A DNA stretch of 64,000 nt. Source: an uncultured Gammaproteobacteria bacterium (GTDB taxonomy: Bacteria > Patescibacteriota > Microgenomatia > JALYQM01). Location of the stretch: positions 98,573 to 162,572 of the forward strand of contig CAZHTP010000001.1 in assembly GCA_964535655.1 (NCBI GenBank), read 5' to 3'. This document shows, one piece after another, positions 8,772 to 59,382 of this stretch (position 1 is its first letter; each line of letters opens with the position of its first letter). The position numbers and the translations under genes are program-made. A model generated the notes under the pieces. It ran no database searches. It was not told where the DNA came from and saw only the letters and a program-made list of their open reading frames with translations.

Positions 8772-9632
8772 ATGGCTGATTATTACGCAACACTTGGTGT
8801 TGCACGAACCGCTACTCCTGAAGAAATAAAGAAAGCCTATCGGGGATTGGTGCGCAAGCACCACCCCGATGTGGATAAATCCGCTGATGCCGAAAAAAAG
8901 TTCAAGGAGATTTCTAATGCGTATGAAGTGTTGTCTGATCCACAGAAACGTCAAACATATGATCAATTTGGCAGTGCCGCTTTTGAAGGAAACGCAGCAG
9001 GTGGTGCGAGTTATGGAGGAAATCCATTTGGAGGTGGTAATCCGTTTGGTGGAGCTGGAGGGTATCAGTATTCGTATTCATCAAGTGGTGACTTTGATCC
9101 TTTTGATGTTTTAAACTCTTTTTTTGGGGGAGGAAGCCCCTTTGGAGGTGGTGCTGGGGGTAAACGTGCCCAACGGACACCCACGTATCAAATTCAGATA
9201 AGTTTTGATGATGCAGTGCATGGAGTGGAGAAGGAAGTTTCGATTGAAGGGAAGTCGCGTAAGATTAAAATTCCGGCAGGGGTTGACGACGGAACGCGGA
9301 TTAAGTTTGATGATTTTTCGTTAATTGTTTCAGTTTTACCTTCAGAAATTTTTCAACGAGACGGCTTTGATGTAATCGTTGAAAAAGAGATCCCGTTTGT
9401 TTTGGCAACGCTTGGTGGATCAACTCTGGTACCAACAGTTGATGGCGATGTGGAGCTAAAAATTCAGCCTGGTACGCAACCTGGTACAGTGGTGAGACTT
9501 GGAGGGCGTGGAATAAAGTCAACACGAGGTAATGCGCGGGGAGATGAGTATGTTAAATTTATTGTGAAGGTACCAACAAAGCTTTCAAATAAAGCTAAAA
9601 AACTGGTAGAAGAGTTACAGAAAGAACTATAA
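8772..9632 (+). CDS. DnaJ-family co-chaperone (J-domain, Gly/Phe-rich region, C-terminal substrate-binding domains) lacking the Cys-rich zinc-finger. It is CbpA/type II-like.
   Basis: The J-domain carries the HPD motif (KHHPDVDK). The G/F region is GGNPFGGAGGY. No CxxCxGxG repeats are present. Confidence 0.85.
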   Translation: MADYYATLGVARTATPEEIKKAYRGLVRKHHPDVDKSADAEKKFKEISNAYEVLSDPQKRQTYDQFGSAAFEGNAAGGASYGGNPFGGGNPFGGAGGYQYSYSSSGDFDPFDVLNSFFGGGSPFGGGAGGKRAQRTPTYQIQISFDDAVHGVEKEVSIEGKSRKIKIPAGVDDGTRIKFDDFSLIVSVLPSEIFQRDGFDVIVEKEIPFVLATLGGSTLVPTVDGDVELKIQPGTQPGTVVRLGGRGIKSTRGNARGDEYVKFIVKVPTKLSNKAKKLVEELQKEL

Positions 9633-9634
9633 TT

Positions 9635-10462
9635 TTATTTTATTCTTCGCGGCCCACCACCTCTGACAACAGGAACAGGTAATTTTTCTTTTAGGATGTG
9701 ACGCGCTGTAAGCATTTCAGGGATATCATGTTGTGAAGCAAACAACAGTCTTCCAGCGGCCGTTCTGTGATTATCGTTTTTGAAAACTTCAAAATTTGGA
9801 CTTTTTAATTCATTATCACACCCTGATAGGACAAAAGTTTTTCGCTGTGATCTTTCCCGATTACTATTACCTGACCCAACTGTTATACAAAATGATCCTT
9901 CAGGTTTCAGGAAAGCAGCGAGTCGTGCAATCGCAGATCGTTTATCGGGATCGTCTTTCTGGGCAAATTGGCGAAATACTTCAGGATCCGCTCGATTGAT
10001 AACGATCGTATCAAAAGGAGTTCCATGATATGTATCAGTAAAGCCACGTATGCCGAGCTCGTAATGATGAAGTGTTGTGGGAGCAATAATTGGACTTAAG
10101 GACTTTATGAGATCTTCTATATCAGTTCGCGGATCGAATGATATTGCGGAGCCAACTTTAAAGCGAGCTGATTCCTCTATATTTCCTGGTACGTCTATCG
10201 TTATTTTTGCCATTAGCGTTTTAAATGCATCTGGACGATAGGCAACTCGTAGCCAATAATCTGAGGGTGGCTCTACATAAAATGCAGAAACTTCATCTAA
10301 TGCTAACCCAGCTCCTACAAATAACGCATTTCCACCTCTTTTTATCTTTCCCATGAGTTCAAGTGTTCTAAATGCGCGATAAAAGGTATGCATTCCAGGA
10401 AATCTTAGATAGGCTTCCGCTTCTTGATGGATTAGGCTGTACTTTCTGCGGCTGCTATCCAT
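9635..10462 (-). CDS. Hypothetical protein, possibly with a class I methyltransferase-like fold.
   Basis: The RBS GAGAAGG lies 5 nt upstream of the ATG. Motifs are weak (ALFVGAGLA, LKPEGSF). No confident family assignment is possible. Confidence 0.55.
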   Translation of the reverse strand: MDSSRRKYSLIHQEAEAYLRFPGMHTFYRAFRTLELMGKIKRGGNALFVGAGLALDEVSAFYVEPPSDYWLRVAYRPDAFKTLMAKITIDVPGNIEESARFKVGSAISFDPRTDIEDLIKSLSPIIAPTTLHHYELGIRGFTDTYHGTPFDTIVINRADPEVFRQFAQKDDPDKRSAIARLAAFLKPEGSFCITVGSGNSNRERSQRKTFVLSGCDNELKSPNFEVFKNDNHRTAAGRLLFASQHDIPEMLTARHILKEKLPVPVVRGGGPRRIK

Positions 10463-27530: not shown

Positions 27531-28475
27531 ATGATTCACAATGTTATTGTTATTGGTTCGGGGCCGGCAGGTTTGACGGCGGCTCTATATCTTTCACGGG
27601 CAGAATTAAAGCCGTTTGTAATTGCAGGTGGTACTCCTGGTGGTCAGTTAATGATTACGACTGAAGTAGATAATTATCCTGGATTTCCTGAAGGGATTAG
27701 TGGTCCTGAGTTGATGCAACGAATGACTGATCAAGCGAAGCGCTTTGGTGCTGAGTTTATAAATGAAGATGCAACGAAGGTGGATTTTTCGCGTAAAGAT
27801 TCGGATATTTTGAAGGTTTGGGTGGGGGAAACGCTGCATGAATCACGTGCTGTAGTTATTGCTACTGGCGCCAGCGCGATGTGGCTTGGCCTTCCGAATG
27901 AAGCGCGTTTGCAAGGGCACGGTGTGTCTGCGTGTGCAACTTGTGATGGATTTTTCTTTAAGGGAAAAGATATTGCGGTTGTTGGAGGTGGAGATACAGC
28001 AATGGAGGAAGCAACGTTTTTAACTCGTTTTGCTAATTCAGTGACAGTTATTCATCGACGAAGTGAACTTCGTGCCAGTAGAATTATGCAGGAGCGGGCA
28101 AAAAACGATCCAAAAATAAGGTTTATGTTTGATACGGTTGTTGAAGATGTGTTGGGTCAGGATAAGGTAGAGGGGCTAAAACTTAAAAATGTTAAGAGCG
28201 GTGAAACTAGTGATGTGGTTTTCAAAGGACTATTTTTAGCGATTGGCCATAAACCCAATACGGAGATCTTTAGAGAATCGGGTCTTGAATTTGATGGTAC
28301 TGGGTATTTGGTAGGTGAACGTGAGACATGGACGAAACTTGAAGGAGTGTTTCTGGCGGGGGACGTGACTGATCATATTTATCGTCAGGCAGTGACTGCT
28401 GCGGGGAGTGGATGTAAGGCGGCGATTGATGTGGAGCGTTGGTTGGGGGAGGTTAAAACAGAGAGGAATTGGTAG
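27531..28475 (+). CDS. trxB: Thioredoxin-disulfide reductase TrxB.
   Basis: GSGPAGLTAALY (FAD binding), the redox-active site CATCDGFFF, and GGGDTAMEEA (NADPH binding) are present. Confidence 0.92.
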   Translation: MIHNVIVIGSGPAGLTAALYLSRAELKPFVIAGGTPGGQLMITTEVDNYPGFPEGISGPELMQRMTDQAKRFGAEFINEDATKVDFSRKDSDILKVWVGETLHESRAVVIATGASAMWLGLPNEARLQGHGVSACATCDGFFFKGKDIAVVGGGDTAMEEATFLTRFANSVTVIHRRSELRASRIMQERAKNDPKIRFMFDTVVEDVLGQDKVEGLKLKNVKSGETSDVVFKGLFLAIGHKPNTEIFRESGLEFDGTGYLVGERETWTKLEGVFLAGDVTDHIYRQAVTAAGSGCKAAIDVERWLGEVKTERNW

Positions 28476-28505
28476 GTCTCTCCCTTTCTCGCTGAATACT
28501 ACGCC

Positions 28506-28580
28506 GACACGCTTAATGCCTCGTCTTCGCTCGGCATTTAGAAGCTCTGCTCTGCCGTCAGTAGTTTGGCAGAGAAGGTC
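28506..28580 (+). repeat. Copy A of a roughly 75-nt intergenic two-hairpin element. It may be a structured RNA, a REP-like repeat or a 3'-UTR motif.
   Basis: It is about 85% identical to 44784-44856. Hairpin 1 pairs AATGCC (28515-28520) with GGCATT (28533-28538). Hairpin 2 pairs CTCTGCC (28550-28556) with GGCAGAG (28568-28574). The element starts 30 nt after the trxB stop. Confidence 0.5.
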
Positions 28581-28640
28581 GGCTTTAGTATTTCAGTCTC
28601 GAAAGCATTCATAAACAATTATCAATTTTTTATATTAAAA

Positions 28641-28669
28641 AACCTCTCTAAAAGAGAGGTTTGTTTTTT
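28641..28669. terminator. Bidirectional intrinsic terminator (AACCTCTCT-aaa-AGAGAGGTT, with A-run upstream and T-run downstream).
   Basis: A perfect 9-bp inverted repeat is flanked by ATTAAAA and TGTTTTTT. It lies between the convergent trxB gene and the small minus-strand gene. Confidence 0.7.
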
Positions 28670-34163: not shown

Positions 34164-34263
34164 CAATCTTGACTTATCCACCAACATATATATAATAAAT
34201 AGTGTAATTGAAGTTTATCGAAGCGGGTTCCTTGGGGCCTGCTTTTTTTATAGGAGAAAATGT

Positions 34264-35286
34264 ATGGATTTATCACAAGCACGAACAGAGTTTGCTTCGG
34301 CGTTGCGCCAGGTCTGTGCTGAGCGTGGAATTGAGGTTGAAGCAGTACTTGAGACGATCAAAGCCGCTATTTTGGCTGCATATCGTAAGGAAGCTAATCT
34401 TGAAACAACCGACGACTTGAATGTTGAAGTTGACGCTGAAACAGGGGAGCTTGGTATATTTCAGGACGGTAAGAATATTACTCCAGCTGGATTTGGTCGT
34501 ATTGCTTCACAAACCGCTAAACAGGTTATTTTACAGAGAATTCGCGAAGCAGAAAAAGCAGCCCTTGTTAAAGAATATGAGGCTAAGATTGGTACCATTC
34601 AGAATGGTATGATTCAGCGTTTTGATCAGGGCAACTGCATAGTTGACCTTGGTAGGGCTGAAGCAATTATGCCTCGTGAAGAGCAGGTACAACGTGAGAG
34701 ATATCGCATTAACCAAAGATTAACCTTCTATATTGCGGAAATTCGTCAGACAGAGCGGGGAGCACAAATTATTGTATCCCGTTCCCGCCCAGAATTGGTT
34801 GAAGAGATCTTCCGCCGTGAAGTTCCGGAAATCGCTTCTGGTGCTGTAGAAGTTAAAGGCATAGCTCGCGAGGGTGGCTCACGTACTAAGATCGCTGTTT
34901 ATAGCAAACAGACTGGTGTTGACCCTGTAGGGTCATGCGTTGGTCAAAAAGGCGTACGTGTTCAGGCTGTTATTTCGGAAATTGGCGAAGAGCGAATTGA
35001 CGTTATCCAATTCAGCGACGATACTGCTAAATTTATTGCGGCCTCACTTGCACCAGCAAAGGGAGTGCTTGTAGACCTTAACAAAGAAGAGCATTCGGCT
35101 TTGGTAACATGTCCAACCGATCAATTGTCGCTTGCTATTGGTAAAGATGGGCAGAATGTTCGCTTAGCTGTGAAATTAACTGGGTGGAAAATAGATATTA
35201 AAGGACCAAAGGGAAGTGAAACAGAGCAGCCAGCTGATATTACTGCCGAAACAGCAAAACCAGAGGAAGTAGCAACCGAAGCTTAA
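34264..35286 (+). CDS. nusA: Transcription termination/antitermination factor NusA (N-terminal, S1 and two KH domains; no C-terminal acidic repeats).
   Basis: The typical NusA N-terminal domain LETIKAAILAAYRK is followed by S1 and KH motifs (GVDPVGSCVGQKGVRVQAV). Confidence 0.9.
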   Translation: MDLSQARTEFASALRQVCAERGIEVEAVLETIKAAILAAYRKEANLETTDDLNVEVDAETGELGIFQDGKNITPAGFGRIASQTAKQVILQRIREAEKAALVKEYEAKIGTIQNGMIQRFDQGNCIVDLGRAEAIMPREEQVQRERYRINQRLTFYIAEIRQTERGAQIIVSRSRPELVEEIFRREVPEIASGAVEVKGIAREGGSRTKIAVYSKQTGVDPVGSCVGQKGVRVQAVISEIGEERIDVIQFSDDTAKFIAASLAPAKGVLVDLNKEEHSALVTCPTDQLSLAIGKDGQNVRLAVKLTGWKIDIKGPKGSETEQPADITAETAKPEEVATEA

Positions 35287-38559: not shown

Positions 38560-38829
38560 ATGGCTTTAGCTAACGACGCTAAAAAGACTATTATTTCTAC
38601 AAACCAGATCCATCAAGGTGATACTGGGTCTCCTGAAGTTCAGGTAGCTATTCTCTCAGAGCGAATCACTCGTCTTACAGAGCATTTGAAGCTTCACAAA
38701 GGTGATAATCACTCTCGACGTGGTCTTTTGCAGATGGTAAATAAGCGCCGAAGACTCCTTATGTATCTTATGAAGAAAGATCCAGAGCGATATAAGTCCG
38801 TTGTTGCTAAAGTTGGCTTGTCCAAGTAA
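38560..38829 (+). CDS. rpsO: 30S ribosomal protein S15.
   Basis: [40 protein letters not shown]...KRRRLL is the S15 signature. Confidence 0.9.
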
Positions 38830-38865
38830 CACTCTTAATGAGAGTATTTTCTAAACCCTCCTTGA

Positions 38866-38962
38866 TGTCATTACGGTGGCACGCATAATTCCTCGCAAAG
38901 CTCGGAATTTAATGCTCAGCTTTTTTGCTAGTGGTATGAAAAAGAAGGCCACTGTGAATGAC
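38866..38962 (+). promoter_or_regulatory. Structured RNA region in the rpsO-pnp intergenic space. A long-range stem encloses nested hairpins, and it may be a processing or terminator element.
   Basis: TGTCATTACGGTGGC (38866-38880) pairs with GCCACTGTGAATGAC (38948-38962) at 13 of 15 positions. An inner hairpin pairs AATTCC with GGAATT (38887-38909). A small hairpin ACTCT-taatg-AGAGT lies immediately after the rpsO stop. Confidence 0.3.
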
Positions 38963-38974
38963 TTCTTCGGAGGT

Positions 38975-39001
38975 TTAGAGATTTATCATAATAGGGTATA
39001 A
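38975..39001 (+). promoter_or_regulatory. Putative pnp promoter (TTTAGA-N17-TATAAT).
   Basis: A consensus -10 TATAAT lies at 38996-39001, with an approximate -35 spaced 17 nt upstream. The pnp ATG follows about 147 nt downstream. Confidence 0.35.
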
Positions 39002-39148
39002 TGTCTATATTATTGTTTTCCCTTACCTTGGGAATCTTGGCATGATTTTGGATCCTGAATTAAACAGAAAAACTCTTTTTTCTGCTTGATCGAGGAATCT
39101 GAAAACTGTCGTGATGTGTCTTTTAGGTTAAGGAGAAGGAGTTATTTT

Positions 39149-41424: not shown

Positions 41425-42501
41425 ATGGCTGACGGACAAAATAGCGATATTTTACAACAACAGACAGATGAACTGCGAGCTCGAGTAGAAGGCGCGAACG
41501 TTCCGGATGGTATTCGAGAAAAATGCCTTGGAATGATTGAGCGTATCGCACGAATGGCGAAGTTTGGTACGTATTCAATTGAATATGAAAATACTTCCCG
41601 ATATATTGATGTTGTGCTGTCAATTCCGTGGGGTGTACTTTCGGAAGATGTTTTGAATCCAACTGTTGCACGAGAAGCGTTAGATAAACATCAATATGGG
41701 CTCGAGCCAGTTAAAGAACGTGTTTTGGAGTACTTAGCTGTTTTACAATTACACCAATATCGTAAACAGCAATTGGGACAAGACGATACGTTTCGCGCTC
41801 CAGTTATCATGTTGGTAGGCCTTGCTGGTACTGGTAAGACATCGTTTGCTTATGCTGTTGCTGACGCAATGAATCGTAAAGTAGCTCGTATTCCGTTTGG
41901 CGGAATGGGGGATGCACTTACGCTTCGTGGACAGTCGCGCGCATTCGCAGATGCTGAGCCAGGTGCGGTTATTAAAGCACTTCTGCAAGCAGGAACACGC
42001 AACCCGGTCATGCTTTTGGACGAAATAGATCGTGTGTCCGATGAAGCACGGGCAAGTGTGATGGGTGTGTTACTTGAGCTTCTTGATCCGCAGCAAAATG
42101 TAGCGTTTCGTGATCACTATTTGGATTATCCGGTTGATTTGTCTGAATGTCTCTTTATCGCGACTGGAAACAACACGACAAATATATCTACGGCGGTATT
42201 GGATCGTTTGGAGGTTATCCAAATGCCATCGTATACAGATGAGGAAAAAATTACTATTGCAGCGAAGTATGTTTTCCCCAAAGCACTACAGGAATCGGGT
42301 TTACCTGAAAATGCAATTATTATTGACCCTTCGGTTTGGCCACAAGTGGTCAGACCACTCGGATTTGATTCCGGCATTCGTACCCTTGAGCGTACGATTC
42401 GCGGAATGTGCCGCAAGGTAGCTCGTATGATTGTTGGTGGAAGTGTTCAGCAAGTGCATGTTACCTCGGAAAATGTAAAGGAATTTTTGCCTACCTGGTA
42501 G
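41425..42501 (+). CDS. Lon-like AAA+ ATPase module lacking both the N-terminal LON substrate-binding domain and the C-terminal S16 protease domain.
   Basis: The pre-AAA region matches Lon (IPWGVLSEDVLNPTVAREALDKHQYGLEPVKERVLEYLAV). Walker A is GLAGTGKTS, Walker B is VMLLDEID, and sensor residues are present. The ORF ends after the helical lid and contains no Ser-Lys dyad region. Confidence 0.75.
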   Translation: MADGQNSDILQQQTDELRARVEGANVPDGIREKCLGMIERIARMAKFGTYSIEYENTSRYIDVVLSIPWGVLSEDVLNPTVAREALDKHQYGLEPVKERVLEYLAVLQLHQYRKQQLGQDDTFRAPVIMLVGLAGTGKTSFAYAVADAMNRKVARIPFGGMGDALTLRGQSRAFADAEPGAVIKALLQAGTRNPVMLLDEIDRVSDEARASVMGVLLELLDPQQNVAFRDHYLDYPVDLSECLFIATGNNTTNISTAVLDRLEVIQMPSYTDEEKITIAAKYVFPKALQESGLPENAIIIDPSVWPQVVRPLGFDSGIRTLERTIRGMCRKVARMIVGGSVQQVHVTSENVKEFLPTW

Positions 42502-42577: not shown

Positions 42578-44749
42578 ATGTCAAATGATACTAATGAAAA
42601 TAACAAAAATGATGGAGTAACTGATTTCTCAGCACTTGTTCCTCAAAAAAATAGATATAATCCTGCGAAGGATTCCGTACAGGTAGCACTTGGTGAATTG
42701 CGAGAGAATATCGCGCAAAAAAATCGCCCTCCCTTTCAGAAAAGAAATGATGGGACACGTCCAGTGCCACGAAATGATGCTCCACGTATCGATGGATCCC
42801 GCACTGATGGTCCACGTCGGCCGGCTCGAGCACCTGCTCCTAATCGTCGACCGCAAGGTGATGGCTATGGAGACCAGATACGCCCTGCTGGTAATCGTCG
42901 CAGTGGTTCGTATGAACCTCGTCGCCGCGATTCACGAGGACCAAGTCAGAACCGCTATCCACAATCACCTCGCCCTATGAGTTCATCAATGGCACGAGGT
43001 GCAACAATTCAAAATACTAACTTATCTCAGCAATGGTATGCCGAAACGGTACCGGTGTTACGGAAAGATCCTAACGTAGTTGAAACTGCAAAACTGCGCA
43101 TTCTTCCTATTGGAGGAATTAATGATGTTCAAAAGAATATGTATGTCTATGAAACCGAAAAAGACATAATAATTATCGACTGCGGGATGGGTTTTGCAGA
43201 CGAAGATATGCCGGGTGTTGATTATTTAATTCCTGATATTTCATATCTTAATGACAAAAAAGATAAGATTCGCGCAATTCTTATTACTCACGGGCATGAT
43301 GACCATATCGGAGCGTTATCGCTAATTTGGCCACAATTAAGGTGTCCTATTTATGCTTCGCATATTACAACTGGTTTTATAAAAACCAAAATGACTGAGC
43401 ATAATTTGCCGGTTGAAGATATTAAAGAGATTGATCCAGACGCATCATATGAATTTGGTGTGTTTAGATTTCAATTCTTTAGATTAAGTCATTCCATTCC
43501 TGATACGTTGGGGTTTGTAATGGATACTCCTGTTGGTAGAATTATTCATAGTGCAGATTTTAAATTTGATTATACTCCGGTAATAGGATTACCAACTGAT
43601 GTTCAGCGTATTGCACGATTTGGCGCAGAAGGTGTTTTGTTATTGCTTTCAGATAGTCTTGGCGCTGAAAAGCCAGGCTATACATTATCTGAAACTGTAG
43701 TTGAAGGACAATTTGATGTTGTTACTGCAAAAACTGTAGGTAAAGTAATTGTCACTACAACTAGCTCAAATATTTCTCGTATTCAGCTTGCTATGAATAT
43801 TGCAGCCAAGTACAATCGCAAAGTTGCTGTGTCTGGGCGTTCAATGGAACAGAATATTGGTGTTGCTCGTAATCTCGGATACTTGAAGTATTCTGATGAT
43901 ATGTTTATTGAGCTTGAGGATATTGGGAAGTATGAGGACCATGAATTGTTCTTAATTGTAGCGGGATCACAGGGGCAAATGGAATCAGCTCTTGGTCGTG
44001 TGTCCCGCGATGAACATAAACAGATTCGCCTTCGCCAGGGTGATTCAGTGGTGTTTTCAACGGATCCAATTCCCGGTAATGAAAACCAGACTAATAAATT
44101 AATTGACGCGCTTATCTCGCATGGTGCTGAAGTGTATTATTCAAATATTTTTAGTAACCTGCATGTTTCAGGTCACGCTGCTCAAGAAGAGCTTAAACTA
44201 ATGATTAGCCTCGTTCGCCCACAATACCTCTTACCTATTGGTGGAACAGCACGAAGTACTAAGAAGTATCGTGATATTGCTATGAATATGGGCTTCAATC
44301 AAGAGTCGGTGTTACTTCCTCAAGAAGGTGAGGTAATTGAATTTAATGTTAAAGACGGAGTTTCTACGCCTTCGATTAACGGTCGCTTTGAAGCAAAGGA
44401 TGTGATGGTTGATGGTCTTGGGGTGGGAGACTTATCTGACATTGTGATTCGCGATCGTCAAGTAATGGCTGAAGAGGGTATGTTGGTAGTTATTGTTCCG
44501 GTTGATCATAAAACGGGGCATACGGAAAGTGGGGTCGAGATTGTTTCGCGTGGATTTGTATACATGAAAGAATCGACTCAGTTGATTGATGACATTACTA
44601 AACTGGTTGAGGATATTCTTGAAGAGCAGCATGGTAAGCCAATGGATTGGACGCTTCTTCGAAAGAAGATTGAAGATCGAGTAAGTAAGTTTATCTTTAA
44701 AGAGATTAAACGTAAACCTATGGTTTTGCCGGTGGTGTTTGAGGTTTAA
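42578..44749 (+). CDS. rnj: Ribonuclease J (metallo-beta-lactamase/beta-CASP) with a roughly 170-aa Arg/Pro/Gly-rich N-terminal extension.
   Basis: ILITHGHDDHIGAL (HxHxDH) and beta-CASP motifs are present, together with the RNase J C-terminal domain. The N-terminus reads RNDGTRPVPRNDAPRIDGSRTDGPRRPARAPAPNRRPQGDGYG... Confidence 0.88.
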   Translation: MSNDTNENNKNDGVTDFSALVPQKNRYNPAKDSVQVALGELRENIAQKNRPPFQKRNDGTRPVPRNDAPRIDGSRTDGPRRPARAPAPNRRPQGDGYGDQIRPAGNRRSGSYEPRRRDSRGPSQNRYPQSPRPMSSSMARGATIQNTNLSQQWYAETVPVLRKDPNVVETAKLRILPIGGINDVQKNMYVYETEKDIIIIDCGMGFADEDMPGVDYLIPDISYLNDKKDKIRAILITHGHDDHIGALSLIWPQLRCPIYASHITTGFIKTKMTEHNLPVEDIKEIDPDASYEFGVFRFQFFRLSHSIPDTLGFVMDTPVGRIIHSADFKFDYTPVIGLPTDVQRIARFGAEGVLLLLSDSLGAEKPGYTLSETVVEGQFDVVTAKTVGKVIVTTTSSNISRIQLAMNIAAKYNRKVAVSGRSMEQNIGVARNLGYLKYSDDMFIELEDIGKYEDHELFLIVAGSQGQMESALGRVSRDEHKQIRLRQGDSVVFSTDPIPGNENQTNKLIDALISHGAEVYYSNIFSNLHVSGHAAQEELKLMISLVRPQYLLPIGGTARSTKKYRDIAMNMGFNQESVLLPQEGEVIEFNVKDGVSTPSINGRFEAKDVMVDGLGVGDLSDIVIRDRQVMAEEGMLVVIVPVDHKTGHTESGVEIVSRGFVYMKESTQLIDDITKLVEDILEEQHGKPMDWTLLRKKIEDRVSKFIFKEIKRKPMVLPVVFEV

Positions 44750-44783
44750 ATTGGTAGTAGCTTTCTTGTCGAGCTTTGATGGT

Positions 44784-44856
44784 GACACGCTTAACGCTTC
44801 GTATTCGCTTGCGTTTAAAGCTCTACTCTGCCTTTAGTTGTTTGGCAGAGAAGGTC
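44784..44856 (+). repeat. Copy B of the roughly 75-nt two-hairpin intergenic element.
   Basis: GACACGCTTAACGCTTCGTATTCGCTTGCGTTTAAAGCTCTACTCTGCCTTTAGTTGTTTGGCAGAGAAGGTC. Hairpin 1 pairs AACGC (44793-44797) with GCGTT (44811-44815). Hairpin 2 pairs CTCTGCC (44826-44832) with GGCAGAG (44844-44850). The element starts 35 nt after the rnj stop. Confidence 0.5.
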
Positions 44857-45011
44857 ACCACAAAGCTCTCCTTCAAAAGCTTATCTTCTCGTGGCTCACC
44901 AGCGGAATTTCTATCTTCAAAACTCTCAACGCGGAAGTTGTAATAGCATCACTGAGATTTTATTTCAAGTTCGTGACAAATGGGCTTGGTGCTGCTATAG
45001 TAGTTTTTGAA

Positions 45012-56846: not shown

Positions 56847-56869
56847 CACTATACCCCGTTGAGTGCTAA
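56843..56869 (+). promoter_or_regulatory. CIRCE-like HrcA operator upstream of lon (TTATCACTA-N9-GAGTGCTAA).
   Basis: The right arm is identical to the CIRCE consensus GAGTGCTAA. The left arm matches TTAGCACTC at 7/9. The spacer is exactly 9 nt, and the position relative to the -10 is the same as at hrcA. Confidence 0.5.
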
Positions 56870-56943
56870 CTGAGATATTACCCCTTGTGTTTATTTCGGT
56901 TACGTGGTTTGTTAGTTATAAGTTAGTAGAGAGGAGAGGAAGC

Positions 56944-59382
56944 ATGTCTTCAACAATCTATTTAGATGGGAAGCCGGTGAAGTTGCGGGAAGAACTGCCT
57001 TTAGTTTCTTTGAGGGAAAAAGTAGTATTTCCTTCTTCATGGGAAAGTTTCTCAATTAATAGGGATAAATCCAAACTCGCGTTGGATGCATCCACAACGA
57101 CAAATGGACTTGTCGTTTTTGTTTGTCAAAAAAATCCACAAACTGTTAACCCTGATTCCAGCGATATGTACGATGTTGGCACCATTGCCCGCATTCGTCG
57201 TTTCTGGAAAGTTAATGGCGATTATAATCTTACCGTTGAAGGGTTAACCCGAGTCTATATTAAAGAATATGTTCAAGATGAACCGTATTTTGTAGTTCGC
57301 TGTGAGGAGATTCCTGAATTGACTACACATAATGATGAAATCGAGGCATTAGTTGCGAATATTACTGCGCAAATGAATCACTACCGGGAGGTAGGTGGAC
57401 ATTTGTCGTTAGAGTCTTCAATTGCGATCTTTTCTGCAGAAGACCCTAATCAATTGTGTAATGCTATTACTGCCGGTGTGGATTTTAAGCCATTTGATAA
57501 ACAGCAAATTCTTGAGATGGTAGACACTCGGGATCGCTTACAAAAGGTAAGTGAACTTCTTGCACACGAAATTCGTGTCCTTGAAATTGGTCAAAAAATT
57601 GCGAACCAAACACAGGAACGTGTTAAGCGAGTTACCAAAGAGGCAATTTTGCGCGAGCAGATGAGTGCAATTAAAAAAGAGCTTGGTGAAGATGAAACAG
57701 AGGATGAAAGTGCAAATGAAGTAAGTGGCCTTAAGAAAGCAGTTAAGAATGCTAAAATGCCTAAAGAAGTACAAGAGAAAGTTGAAAAAGAAATTAAGCG
57801 ACTTTCTAAAATGCCAGCTATGAGCCCTGAAGTTTCATACCTGCGTACATATATCGATACCGTTCTTGAACTTCCCTGGGGAGTTAAGACTGAGGCAAAA
57901 GTTAATGTGTCGGATGCTGAGAAAATTCTTGATGAAGAACATTACGGTTTAAATAAAGCTAAAGAACGTATCTTGGAGTTTTTAGCTGTGCAAAAACTTG
58001 CCGGTAAAATGAAAGGTCCAATTCTTTGCTTTTCGGGTCCTCCAGGAGTAGGAAAGACTTCAATTGGAAAGTCTATTGCTAAGGCATTGGGACGTAAATT
58101 TGTAAAAGTATCTTTAGGCGGAATTCGTGATGAAGCAGAAATCCGCGGACATCGCCGCACGTATGTTGGTGCCTTGCCGGGAAGAATTATTCAGGGTATT
58201 AAACAGTCCGGTTCTTCAAACCCCGTGTTTATGCTTGATGAAATAGATAAAATTGGTAATGATTACCGGGGTGATCCTTCGGCAGCTTTACTTGAAGCGC
58301 TTGATCCTGAGCAGAACAATAACTTCTCAGATCACTACTTGGAAGTTCCGTTCGATCTTTCGGATGTGATGTTTATTGCTACGGCAAACGTTTTGGAAAC
58401 AATACCGCATGCGCTTCGCGATCGCTTGGAGATAATTGAATTCCCAGGCTATACGGAGCATGAAAAATTCCAAATTGCTGAAACGTATCTGGTGCCAAAA
58501 CAGGTTGAGAATCACGGTTTGAAGGAGAATCAATTTACTCTTACCAGTGATGCTTTAAAGAAAATTATTAATTCGTATACACGAGAGGCAGGTGTGCGAA
58601 GTTTGGAGCGAGAAGTTTCTGCTGTAATTCGTAAGGTGGCGAGAAAAGTAGCGGAAGACAAGGGAACTGAATTCACTATTGATTTGAAAGACGTACCTGA
58701 ATACTTGGGTCCAGCAAAGTTTAGCCCTGAGATTGCTGAAAAGGAAAACGAAATTGGTATGTCAACCGGGTTATTCTGGACTGAAGTGGGAGGAGGAATT
58801 CTCTTTATTGAAGTAAGTGTTGTTCCTGGCAAGGGACAGCTCACCTTAACTGGCTCACTTGGTGATGTAATGAAAGAATCGTGTATGGCTGCTATCAGCT
58901 ATGTACGTTCACGTGCATCGGCTTTAGGATTGGATGAGAAGTTCAACCAAAAGGTAGATATTCATGTCCACGTTCCATCAGGCGCTGTACCCAAAGATGG
59001 TCCATCGGCAGGTGCGGCTATAACAACTGCGTTAGTGTCAGCCTTAACACGAATTCCAACTCGCAAAGATGTTGCGATGACTGGTGAAATTACTCTGCGC
59101 GGTAGAGTAACTGAAATTGGTGGCTTAAAGGAAAAAATTATTGGTGCACACCGTGCTGGAATTAAAACCGTAATCATTCCTAAAGAGAATGAGAAAGATA
59201 TTGTTGAAATTCCTGATATGGTTAAAAATGATTTGAACTTCTATTTTGTAGACCATATGGATCAGGTTTTACCAATAGTTTTGACTGAAAAGATTAATGC
59301 GTCAAAGCCTCAAAAATTAGGAATTCGTAAGAATCCTGAAAAAAAGGCTAAGGATGAAGATTTTAAAGTTGCGGTTGGATAA
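56944..59382 (+). CDS. lon: ATP-dependent Lon protease, full length (LON N-domain, AAA+, S16 protease).
   Basis: The RBS is GAGGAGAGGA. The N-terminal motif is LPLVSLREKVVFP, Walker A is GPPGVGKTS, and the protease active site is PKDGPSAGAAITTALVSAL with Ser and a downstream Lys. Confidence 0.92.
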   Translation: MSSTIYLDGKPVKLREELPLVSLREKVVFPSSWESFSINRDKSKLALDASTTTNGLVVFVCQKNPQTVNPDSSDMYDVGTIARIRRFWKVNGDYNLTVEGLTRVYIKEYVQDEPYFVVRCEEIPELTTHNDEIEALVANITAQMNHYREVGGHLSLESSIAIFSAEDPNQLCNAITAGVDFKPFDKQQILEMVDTRDRLQKVSELLAHEIRVLEIGQKIANQTQERVKRVTKEAILREQMSAIKKELGEDETEDESANEVSGLKKAVKNAKMPKEVQEKVEKEIKRLSKMPAMSPEVSYLRTYIDTVLELPWGVKTEAKVNVSDAEKILDEEHYGLNKAKERILEFLAVQKLAGKMKGPILCFSGPPGVGKTSIGKSIAKALGRKFVKVSLGGIRDEAEIRGHRRTYVGALPGRIIQGIKQSGSSNPVFMLDEIDKIGNDYRGDPSAALLEALDPEQNNNFSDHYLEVPFDLSDVMFIATANVLETIPHALRDRLEIIEFPGYTEHEKFQIAETYLVPKQVENHGLKENQFTLTSDALKKIINSYTREAGVRSLEREVSAVIRKVARKVAEDKGTEFTIDLKDVPEYLGPAKFSPEIAEKENEIGMSTGLFWTEVGGGILFIEVSVVPGKGQLTLTGSLGDVMKESCMAAISYVRSRASALGLDEKFNQKVDIHVHVPSGAVPKDGPSAGAAITTALVSALTRIPTRKDVAMTGEITLRGRVTEIGGLKEKIIGAHRAGIKTVIIPKENEKDIVEIPDMVKNDLNFYFVDHMDQVLPIVLTEKINASKPQKLGIRKNPEKKAKDEDFKVAVG

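Follow-up and report, generated by a model that had tools for sequence, protein, structure and literature searches.

Two similar 75-base stretches in the 64,000-nucleotide stretch of DNA analyzed here (the window) are the cores of a larger palindromic repeat of ~125-135 nt. The repeat probably represents a new family of palindromic repeats of the REP, REPIN, or MITE kind that is restricted to one lineage, is or once was mobile, and is under selection as a folded single strand. Its hosts are most likely a narrow clade of Microgenomates-like Patescibacteria (CPR). We consider it probably a selfish repeat and not a new regulatory RNA; a role as a 3′-UTR RNA structure is possible.

The original prediction described a 75-nt element, present twice and made of two hairpins. 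Both stretches were found in the window sequence, at 28506-28580 (core of copy A) and 44784-44856 (core of copy B), and their identity, put at ~85%, is 64 of 75 positions (85.3%). The trxB TAG ends at 28475, 30 nt before the core of copy A, and the rnj TAA ends at 44749, 34 nt before that of copy B. The products of the two upstream genes match TIGR01292 (TrxB, 27531-28475) and TIGR00649 (RNase J, 42578-44749). Folding predicts both hairpins, and the proposed exchange of a U-A pair for a C-G pair in hairpin 1 is present in the alignment. A 31-nt pattern describing hairpin 2 matches the window twice, compared to 0.00 matches expected from 100 shuffles.

However, the predicted unit was too small and its copy number too low. 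Each window core is closed by a long stem, P1, of 15-29 bp, whose arms differ in sequence from copy to copy and remain complementary. The unit is therefore a three-way junction of ~125-135 nt with a long, variable closing stem, rather than a pair of hairpins. The P1 arms of copies A and B are unrelated past the inner GAC/GUC, are complementary within each copy, and are followed by shorter outer stems. A covariance model built from four copies (CM R1) detected a further window copy in the rpsO-pnp spacer, at 38874-38954 (copy C; 62 bits, E 2e-14). The features of the three window copies are as follows.

28484-28605, plus strand: copy A, whole element, comprising an outer 5-bp stem (CUUUC/GAAAG), a 17-bp P1, and the core; trxB stop at 28475 upstream, bidirectional terminator at 28640-28662 downstream; RNA fold z -4.96, DNA fold z -4.90; CM R1 92 bits, E 2.5e-22
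28491-28508, plus strand: copy A, 5′ arm of P1, gctgaatactacgccgac, pairing with 28578-28596
28578-28596, plus strand: copy A, 3′ arm of P1, gtcggctttagtatttcag
28511-28545, plus strand: copy A, P2 (hairpin 1), with base GCUU/AAGC, a 3-nt bulge, and upper stem AAUGCC/GGCAUU
28547-28577, plus strand: copy A, P3 (hairpin 2), CU.CUCUGCC/GGCAGAG.AG with a G x A mismatch and an 11-nt loop that ends in GUUUG
44759-44885, plus strand: copy B, whole element, comprising an outer stem (AGCUUU/AAAGCU), a 15-bp P1, and the core at 44784-44856; rnj stop at 44749 upstream, ftsK promoter-like site at 44973-45001 downstream; RNA fold z -5.36, DNA fold z -6.75; CM 100 bits
44771-44786 paired with 44854-44868, plus strand: copy B, P1, arms gagctttgatggtgac and gtcaccacaaagctc, with one bulged A
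38848-38981, plus strand: copy C, whole element (inverted repeat I12), comprising a ~29-bp P1 and the core at 38878-38950; rpsO stop at 38829 upstream, pnp promoter-like site at 38974-39002 downstream; CM R1 62 bits, E 2e-14; CM R2 77.5 bits
~38848-38878 and 38950-38981, plus strand: copy C, P1 arms

Many two-sided changes separate copy C from copies A and B. The inner P1 changes from GAC/GUC to GGC/GCC, P2 from AAUGCC/GGCAUU to AAUUCC/GGAAUU, and P3 from CUCUGCC/GGCAGAG to CUUUUUU/GAAAAAG. Core identity between copies within a genome is 63-85%.

Copies B and C are not assembly artefacts, since a contig (L038) from an independent Logan assembly is identical to them at every base. A second Logan contig, L020, from an independent assembly of the same sample, ends at 28513, 8 nt into the copy A core; this break may reflect strain heterogeneity at site A. 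The small number of window copies and the end of L020 inside copy A would fit a chance duplication or assembly artefact without biological meaning. We give this explanation almost no weight, as it is contradicted by nine copies with covariance-model E-values of 1e-12 to 1e-24 in five assemblies from different samples, by the exact match of copies B and C in an independent assembly, and by the covariation statistics, in which no shuffle of 500 reached the observed values. The 9-mer AATTGGTAG stands directly before both copy A (28467-28475, the last trxB codons and stop) and copy B (44750-44758, after the rnj stop), which may be a target preference or a coincidence. At trxB the 9-mer is older than the insertion, as a relative's locus (L034) has AACTGGTAG there.

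To search relatives with a covariance model, as the original prediction had proposed, we ran CM R1 and a second model, CM R2, without filters on ~250 kb of non-redundant sequence that included the window and syntenic loci from ~9 related Patescibacteria genomes. Further copies were found: CM R2 recovered exactly nine in the ~250 kb, with scores of 53-93 bits, and everything else scored at most 14 bits, which argues for a repeat family rather than chance. The nine copies, with model coordinates, are listed here.

Window 28502-28584, plus strand: A, after trxB
Window 44780-44860, plus strand: B, after rnj and before ftsK
Window 38874-38954, plus strand: C, after rpsO and before pnp
L009 5403-5482, minus strand: L009, after a PMT glycosyltransferase gene (PMT glycosyltransferase and pilin neighbors)
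L016 4546-4616, minus strand: L016, after a holA-like gene and before mdh/ldh
L024 8309-8381, minus strand: L024a, in the rpsO-pnp spacer, antisense to both genes
L024 3412-3484, plus strand: L024b, between divergent genes, upstream of nusA
L024 2807-2873, plus strand: L024c, after an OFOR beta subunit gene, P3 partly broken
L031 18606-18681, plus strand: L031, after rodZ

Copy density was thus three in the 64-kb window, three in 21 kb of L024, and one in 22 kb of L031. The closest relative (L021 plus L034, ~34 kb) contained no copy, and neither did the L026, L030, and L033 loci. In PNPase and TrxB searches, the nearest named matches were Gottesman-, Davies-, and Shapirobacteria and Microgenomates at 52-56% identity; proteins from MAGs matched at 74-92%. 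On the basis of these searches, the window belongs to Patescibacteria.

We also looked more widely. An exact-pattern scan of GTDB species genomes, which required CTCTGCC such that CTTTGCC variants (found later) fell outside it, yielded 19 loci. Two were real copies (L009 and L016), both in MAG CAYOFQ01, and the other 17 were chance matches in high-GC genomes. MAG CAYOFQ01, with a contig of 1.57 Mb, is labeled "uncultured Gammaproteobacteria," yet its PNPase and TrxB are 87-90% identical to those of the window, and its taxonomy is probably misassigned. In JGI metagenomes, a scan with a degenerate pattern turned up no real copy, only two weak matches attributable to chance, and no copy was present in the viral contigs, plasmids, and phages scanned. 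As the original prediction had anticipated, no described family matched: with gathering thresholds applied, Rfam 15 returned 0 matches in the window, and when the cutoff was relaxed to E up to 10 for copies A, B, C, and L024b, only unrelated results came up. These sub-threshold results were the neighboring terminator or weak snoRNA and viral matches far below threshold.

All nine copies fold to one three-way junction closed by a P1 of 15-29 bp, and their stem stabilities are -48 to -61 kcal/mol. In the model-based alignment, which is itself fitted to the covariance model, 96.1% of cells are paired compared to 33-45% in slid controls, and 16 of 26 pairs show two-sided changes; none of 500 shuffles reached the observed values. 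An unfitted alignment (MAFFT with RNAalifold) recovered the same three helices (inner P1, P2 base, and P3), with 9 of 19 pairs compensatory. Thus, the nine copies support the central proposal of a repeated intergenic element whose structure is kept by compensatory substitutions. Stem-breaking substitutions, which had been named as evidence against it, are seen in L024c, where P3 is partly broken as expected of a decaying repeat.

Conservation is highest at the center of the element. The junction C-AC-G, GC-UCUGCU, and AGAAGG segments are near-invariant, as are P3 and, on the 3′ side of its loop, the GU.UG motif. P1 and P2 vary freely in sequence with pairing kept, the outer stem is least conserved, and the P2 loop is also free. 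The inner P1 stem is GAC/GUC, or else GGC/GCC or AAC/GUU.

The original prediction took covariation to argue for selection on RNA structure, a step that fails on its own. Single-stranded DNA folds as the RNA does, with DNA-parameter z scores of -4.8 to -6.8 (RNA z ~-5), and in five of the nine copies the opposite strand folds equally well or better. G·U pairs are rare and nearly strand-symmetric, with 15 on the sense and 11 on the antisense strand against ~390 Watson-Crick pairs (391 sense), or ~4% of pairs, and a strand test that compared G·U with A·C counts gave no signal. Since G·U pairs are rare and unbiased, the antisense strand folds, and the DNA fold is identical, the structural data do not point to one molecule. 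A folded structure is under selection, and the data do not distinguish its RNA form from its DNA form. REPINs, a form of mobile hairpin DNA, frequently show compensatory changes as well (PMC3116915). For the discovery of RNA motifs in general, this is a caution that strong covariation alone does not prove RNA to be the selected molecule.

One alternative is that the element is a new class of functional structured RNA that lies in 3′ UTRs or is excised by RNase III cleavage in P1, has a protein-binding or catalytic core, and has spread by duplication. We regard this as unlikely, though it merits weighing. The near-invariant junction and P3 within covarying stems fit it, as do the G·U wobbles of copy C, which favor the sense strand, and the lack of an Rfam match would make such an RNA new. 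On the other hand, the ~4% of G·U pairs across the family show no strand asymmetry, five of the nine copies have an opposite strand whose fold is at least as good, and one copy (L024c) is decaying. A related and slightly less probable possibility is that the invariant junction core and the P3 GU.UG loop, held in a covarying stem, form a new functional module of CPR bacteria, namely, a released protein-binding or catalytic RNA or the recognition structure of a new mobilization enzyme. A new RNA or the target of a single-strand-specific mobilization enzyme would, in either case, be a new class and go beyond another MITE.

Comparisons between filled and empty sites favor a mobile repeat. The L021 locus is collinear with the window (PNPase 90% identical) and has no element at sites B and C. 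Its rpsO-pnp and rnj-ftsK spacers measure 121 and 114 nt, and the window has ~150 and ~210 extra bases there, respectively; the downstream promoter and leader motifs of L021 and the window align at both sites. At site A in L036 and L037 (TrxB 84% and 77% identical), the trxB stop directly meets the conserved terminator AAAAAACCTCTC...GAGAGGTTT, whereas ~154 nt, including copy A, separate the two in the window. The three copies of L024 are all at other places than those of the window, and the one in L031 follows rodZ. This presence and absence between close relatives at sites A, B, and C supports the mobile-repeat reading, and the empty orthologous sites, whose flanking proteins are 84-90% identical, argue against a conserved gene-specific regulatory RNA and hence against the functional-RNA alternative. 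When we aligned filled and empty sites in search of a target-site duplication, the flanks were too diverged to place the boundaries to the base. We also rejected the element as the source of the trxB stop, since the C-terminal extension and stop are also present in relatives that do not have the element.

Other long-stem palindromic inserts occupy two of the same sites in relatives. One lies at site A of L034 (10946-11090; TrxB 87% identical), and yet another lies in the rpsO-pnp spacer, site C, of L026 (~9576-9695). Both have closing stems of 12-16 bp and branched tops, and both are invisible to CM R2. As each is single-copy in the sequence collected and has no R2 match, we did not retain them as further repeat families; they may be decayed orthologues or other repeat families at the same hot spots.

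The P1 arms indicate that the unit travels as a whole. Copy B and L016, at unrelated loci in different genomes, have 13 bp of P1 in common, including the same bulged A. Likewise, an inner P1 is common to A, L024a, L024c, and L031; all four carry the same C x U mismatch, and the differences between them are compensated. Because P1 is common to B and L016 and to the A/L024a/L024c/L031 group, arms and core appear to move together. Sharing is confined to these subgroups: between A, B, C, L009, and L024b, the arms have nothing in common past the inner 3-4 bp.

Several other origins were considered and rejected. The empty sites have no hairpin at the point of insertion and the arms are common to unrelated loci, which speaks against a core that inserted into host hairpins already present, such as terminator loops. 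Comparison of the P1 arms with the rest of the sequence collected revealed no further match for any arm, and arms that guide the element to a target elsewhere were therefore discounted. An inversion of the core alone between copy C and L024a was not supported, because the C x U mismatch keeps its orientation to the core, indicating that the whole unit was reversed.

Most copies lie directly behind genes. Eight of the nine begin 6-21 nt past the stop of the upstream gene, seven of them sense and one (L024a) antisense. The original prediction placed the element in 3′ UTRs in sense orientation, which is true of the window and not of the relatives, where the rpsO-pnp spacer holds L024a in antisense and L024b lies upstream of nusA. 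That copies occur in either orientation (L024a being antisense) and also 5′ of a gene (L024b) supports mobility. So do the flanking genes (trxB, rnj/ftsK, rpsO/pnp, holA-like/mdh, PMT glycosyltransferase/pilin, OFOR beta subunit, nusA, and rodZ), which have no function in common. In empty alleles, the gap from the stop to the next terminator or promoter is a few bases only, and the tight spacing to stop codons may mean that these are the sole tolerated insertion points in a compact genome.

Position bears on the functional-RNA alternative in both directions. Seven of nine copies lie 6-21 nt past a same-strand stop and eight of nine are sense to a neighboring gene, which fits that alternative; the antisense copy L024a, the copy upstream of a gene (L024b), and the lack of a common function among the neighboring genes run against it. 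Moreover, the orientation bias is ambiguous. The sense strand of eight of the nine copies is that of the adjacent transcript and is also the G-rich leading strand, and since nearly all genes are on the G-rich strand, transcription and replication orientation are confounded and cannot be separated as sources of this bias.

A very stable hairpin directly behind stop codons could also be a terminator or insulator module that terminates transcription without a U-tract, and the empty alleles of B and C have no recognizable intrinsic terminator before the next promoter. We consider this improbable. The original prediction had already held that the element is not an intrinsic terminator, and we agree: no U-tract or T-run lies 3′ of any copy, and a terminator scan flagged no copy and did flag 28640-28662. 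This canonical bidirectional terminator, which is conserved and which relatives use without the element, begins ~35 nt beyond the end of copy A at 28605. In addition, L024b, flanked by divergent genes, lies in a promoter region, and close relatives do without the element altogether.

Several features near the copies deserve mention. The -35-like hexamer of the pnp promoter-like site (38974-39002), TTTAGA, is contributed by the outer 3′ arm of copy C; L021, whose site is empty, instead has TTGTCT at this position, overlapping the rpsO end. Further downstream, the pnp 5′ leader contains a hairpin (window 39043-39105, I13) whose base, ttttGGATCCTGAAtt ... tTGAGGAATCTGAAAA, is conserved in four relatives and whose top varies, making it a candidate autoregulatory or RNase III-type leader by analogy with E. 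coli. Before the nusA start at 34264, a strong promoter-like TTGACT-16-TATAAT (34169-34196) is followed by a terminator-like hairpin and T-tract (34220-34245); from its sequence, the 34169-34264 region looks like an attenuator-type nusA leader. The window RNase J (42578-44749) is 723 aa long, of which ~170 aa form an N-terminal extension ahead of the beta-lactamase domain; in relatives it is 697-719 aa. The pnp-rnj interval contains, in the window and all relatives, a stand-alone Lon-like gene (41425-42501, 358 aa in the window) that encodes only AAA+ and lid domains, without a protease domain; a complete Lon is encoded at 56863-59382.

How might a mobile palindromic repeat of this kind spread? 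In the mechanism we propose, the whole unit, arms included, would be copied to new sites, and the selected form would be the folded single strand, most likely single-stranded DNA. By analogy with what has been proposed for REPINs and RAYT, a trans-acting enzyme encoded elsewhere would recognize the conserved junction and P3. We infer recognition at this position from the conservation of the center and not the ends. The outer stem would only need to pair, presenting the junction and P3 to the enzyme. Sense insertion downstream of a gene would result in transcription of the element into the 3′ UTR, where its stable stem might, as a by-product, block 3′ exonucleases or serve as an RNase III target.

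Some observations count against a mobile repeat. Conservation here is high in the center and low at the ends; TIR-type MITEs and REPINs show the opposite, and the pattern is reminiscent of a functional RNA or a protein-recognition module. We found no transposase, RAYT, or partner gene among the window ORFs scanned. Eight of nine copies are on the strand of the adjacent transcript, the copies are old (63-85% core identity) with no recent burst, and copy number is modest, at three per 64 kb and none in ~34 kb of the closest relative. We nonetheless favor a mobile or formerly mobile repeat, and of the two possibilities originally raised, a structured RNA or a REP-like repeat, the second fits better.

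Patescibacteria have small, compact genomes and are usually thought to be poor in repetitive DNA. Our limited literature searches found no description of interspersed palindromic repeats in this group. Here, a repeat enters the few spare bases after core genes such as trxB, rnj, and rpsO, resulting in altered 3′ UTRs and one altered -35 region.

Among known systems, the element has much in common with TIR-type bacterial MITEs with complex folds, which include Correia/NEMIS elements in Neisseria, ERIC/IRU in enterobacteria, RUP and BOX in pneumococcus, and bcr1 in Bacillus cereus. These are non-coding palindromic intergenic repeats of 100-170 bp that are co-transcribed, form stable RNA stem-loops, vary between strains, and sometimes contribute parts of promoters or terminators. 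Their terminal inverted repeats, which are the transposase-binding part, are conserved, and they have target-site duplications (TA for Correia). Like them, our element has terminal inverted repeats (P1, 15-29 bp in all nine copies), insertion polymorphism and, in copy C, a -35-like hexamer. Unlike them, its termini differ between copies, with no terminal sequence common to all.

Integron attC sites are similar in that they lie directly after an ORF, conserve single-strand structure while sequence varies, and can have a branched top. However, attC sites conserve the base of the stem (R′′/R′ boxes, RYYYAAC/GTTRRRY) and vary in the center, which is the reverse of our element. The inner stem of the element is of the GAC/GUC type, its neighbors are syntenic housekeeping genes and not cassettes, and no integrase is nearby. 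Hammerhead and twister-sister ribozymes also have a three-way junction, invariant junction nucleotides, covarying stems, and dispersed copies. In contrast, the alignment of our element contains no CUGANGA...GAAA hammerhead core, no Rfam ribozyme matched at E up to 10, and the junction strands are only 0-2 nt.

REPINs, which are REP doublets mobilized by RAYT (TnpA-REP), provide the other close parallel (Bertels and Rainey, 2011; PMC3116915). Both are extragenic, ~100 nt in length, able to form a long hairpin in single-stranded DNA or mRNA, and replicated as a whole unit; both commonly show compensatory changes across the hairpin and differ in presence or absence between related strains. REPINs are symmetric, consisting of two inverted copies of one REP with conserved 16-mers at the ends and a variable spacer, whereas the element has an asymmetric conserved core, in which P2 differs from P3, and variable arms. 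In addition, REP-RAYT systems have tens to hundreds of copies per genome compared to three in the 64 kb of the window, and their genomes carry the cognate RAYT (Y1 transposase) gene, usually flanked by REPs; we found no GTAG-type REP head in the element and no RAYT among the scanned window ORFs. The element is closest to REPINs and complex MITEs such as ERIC and Correia, yet defining features of each are missing. Its conserved center within covarying arms is unusual, and it provides a handle for finding the partner that recognizes it.
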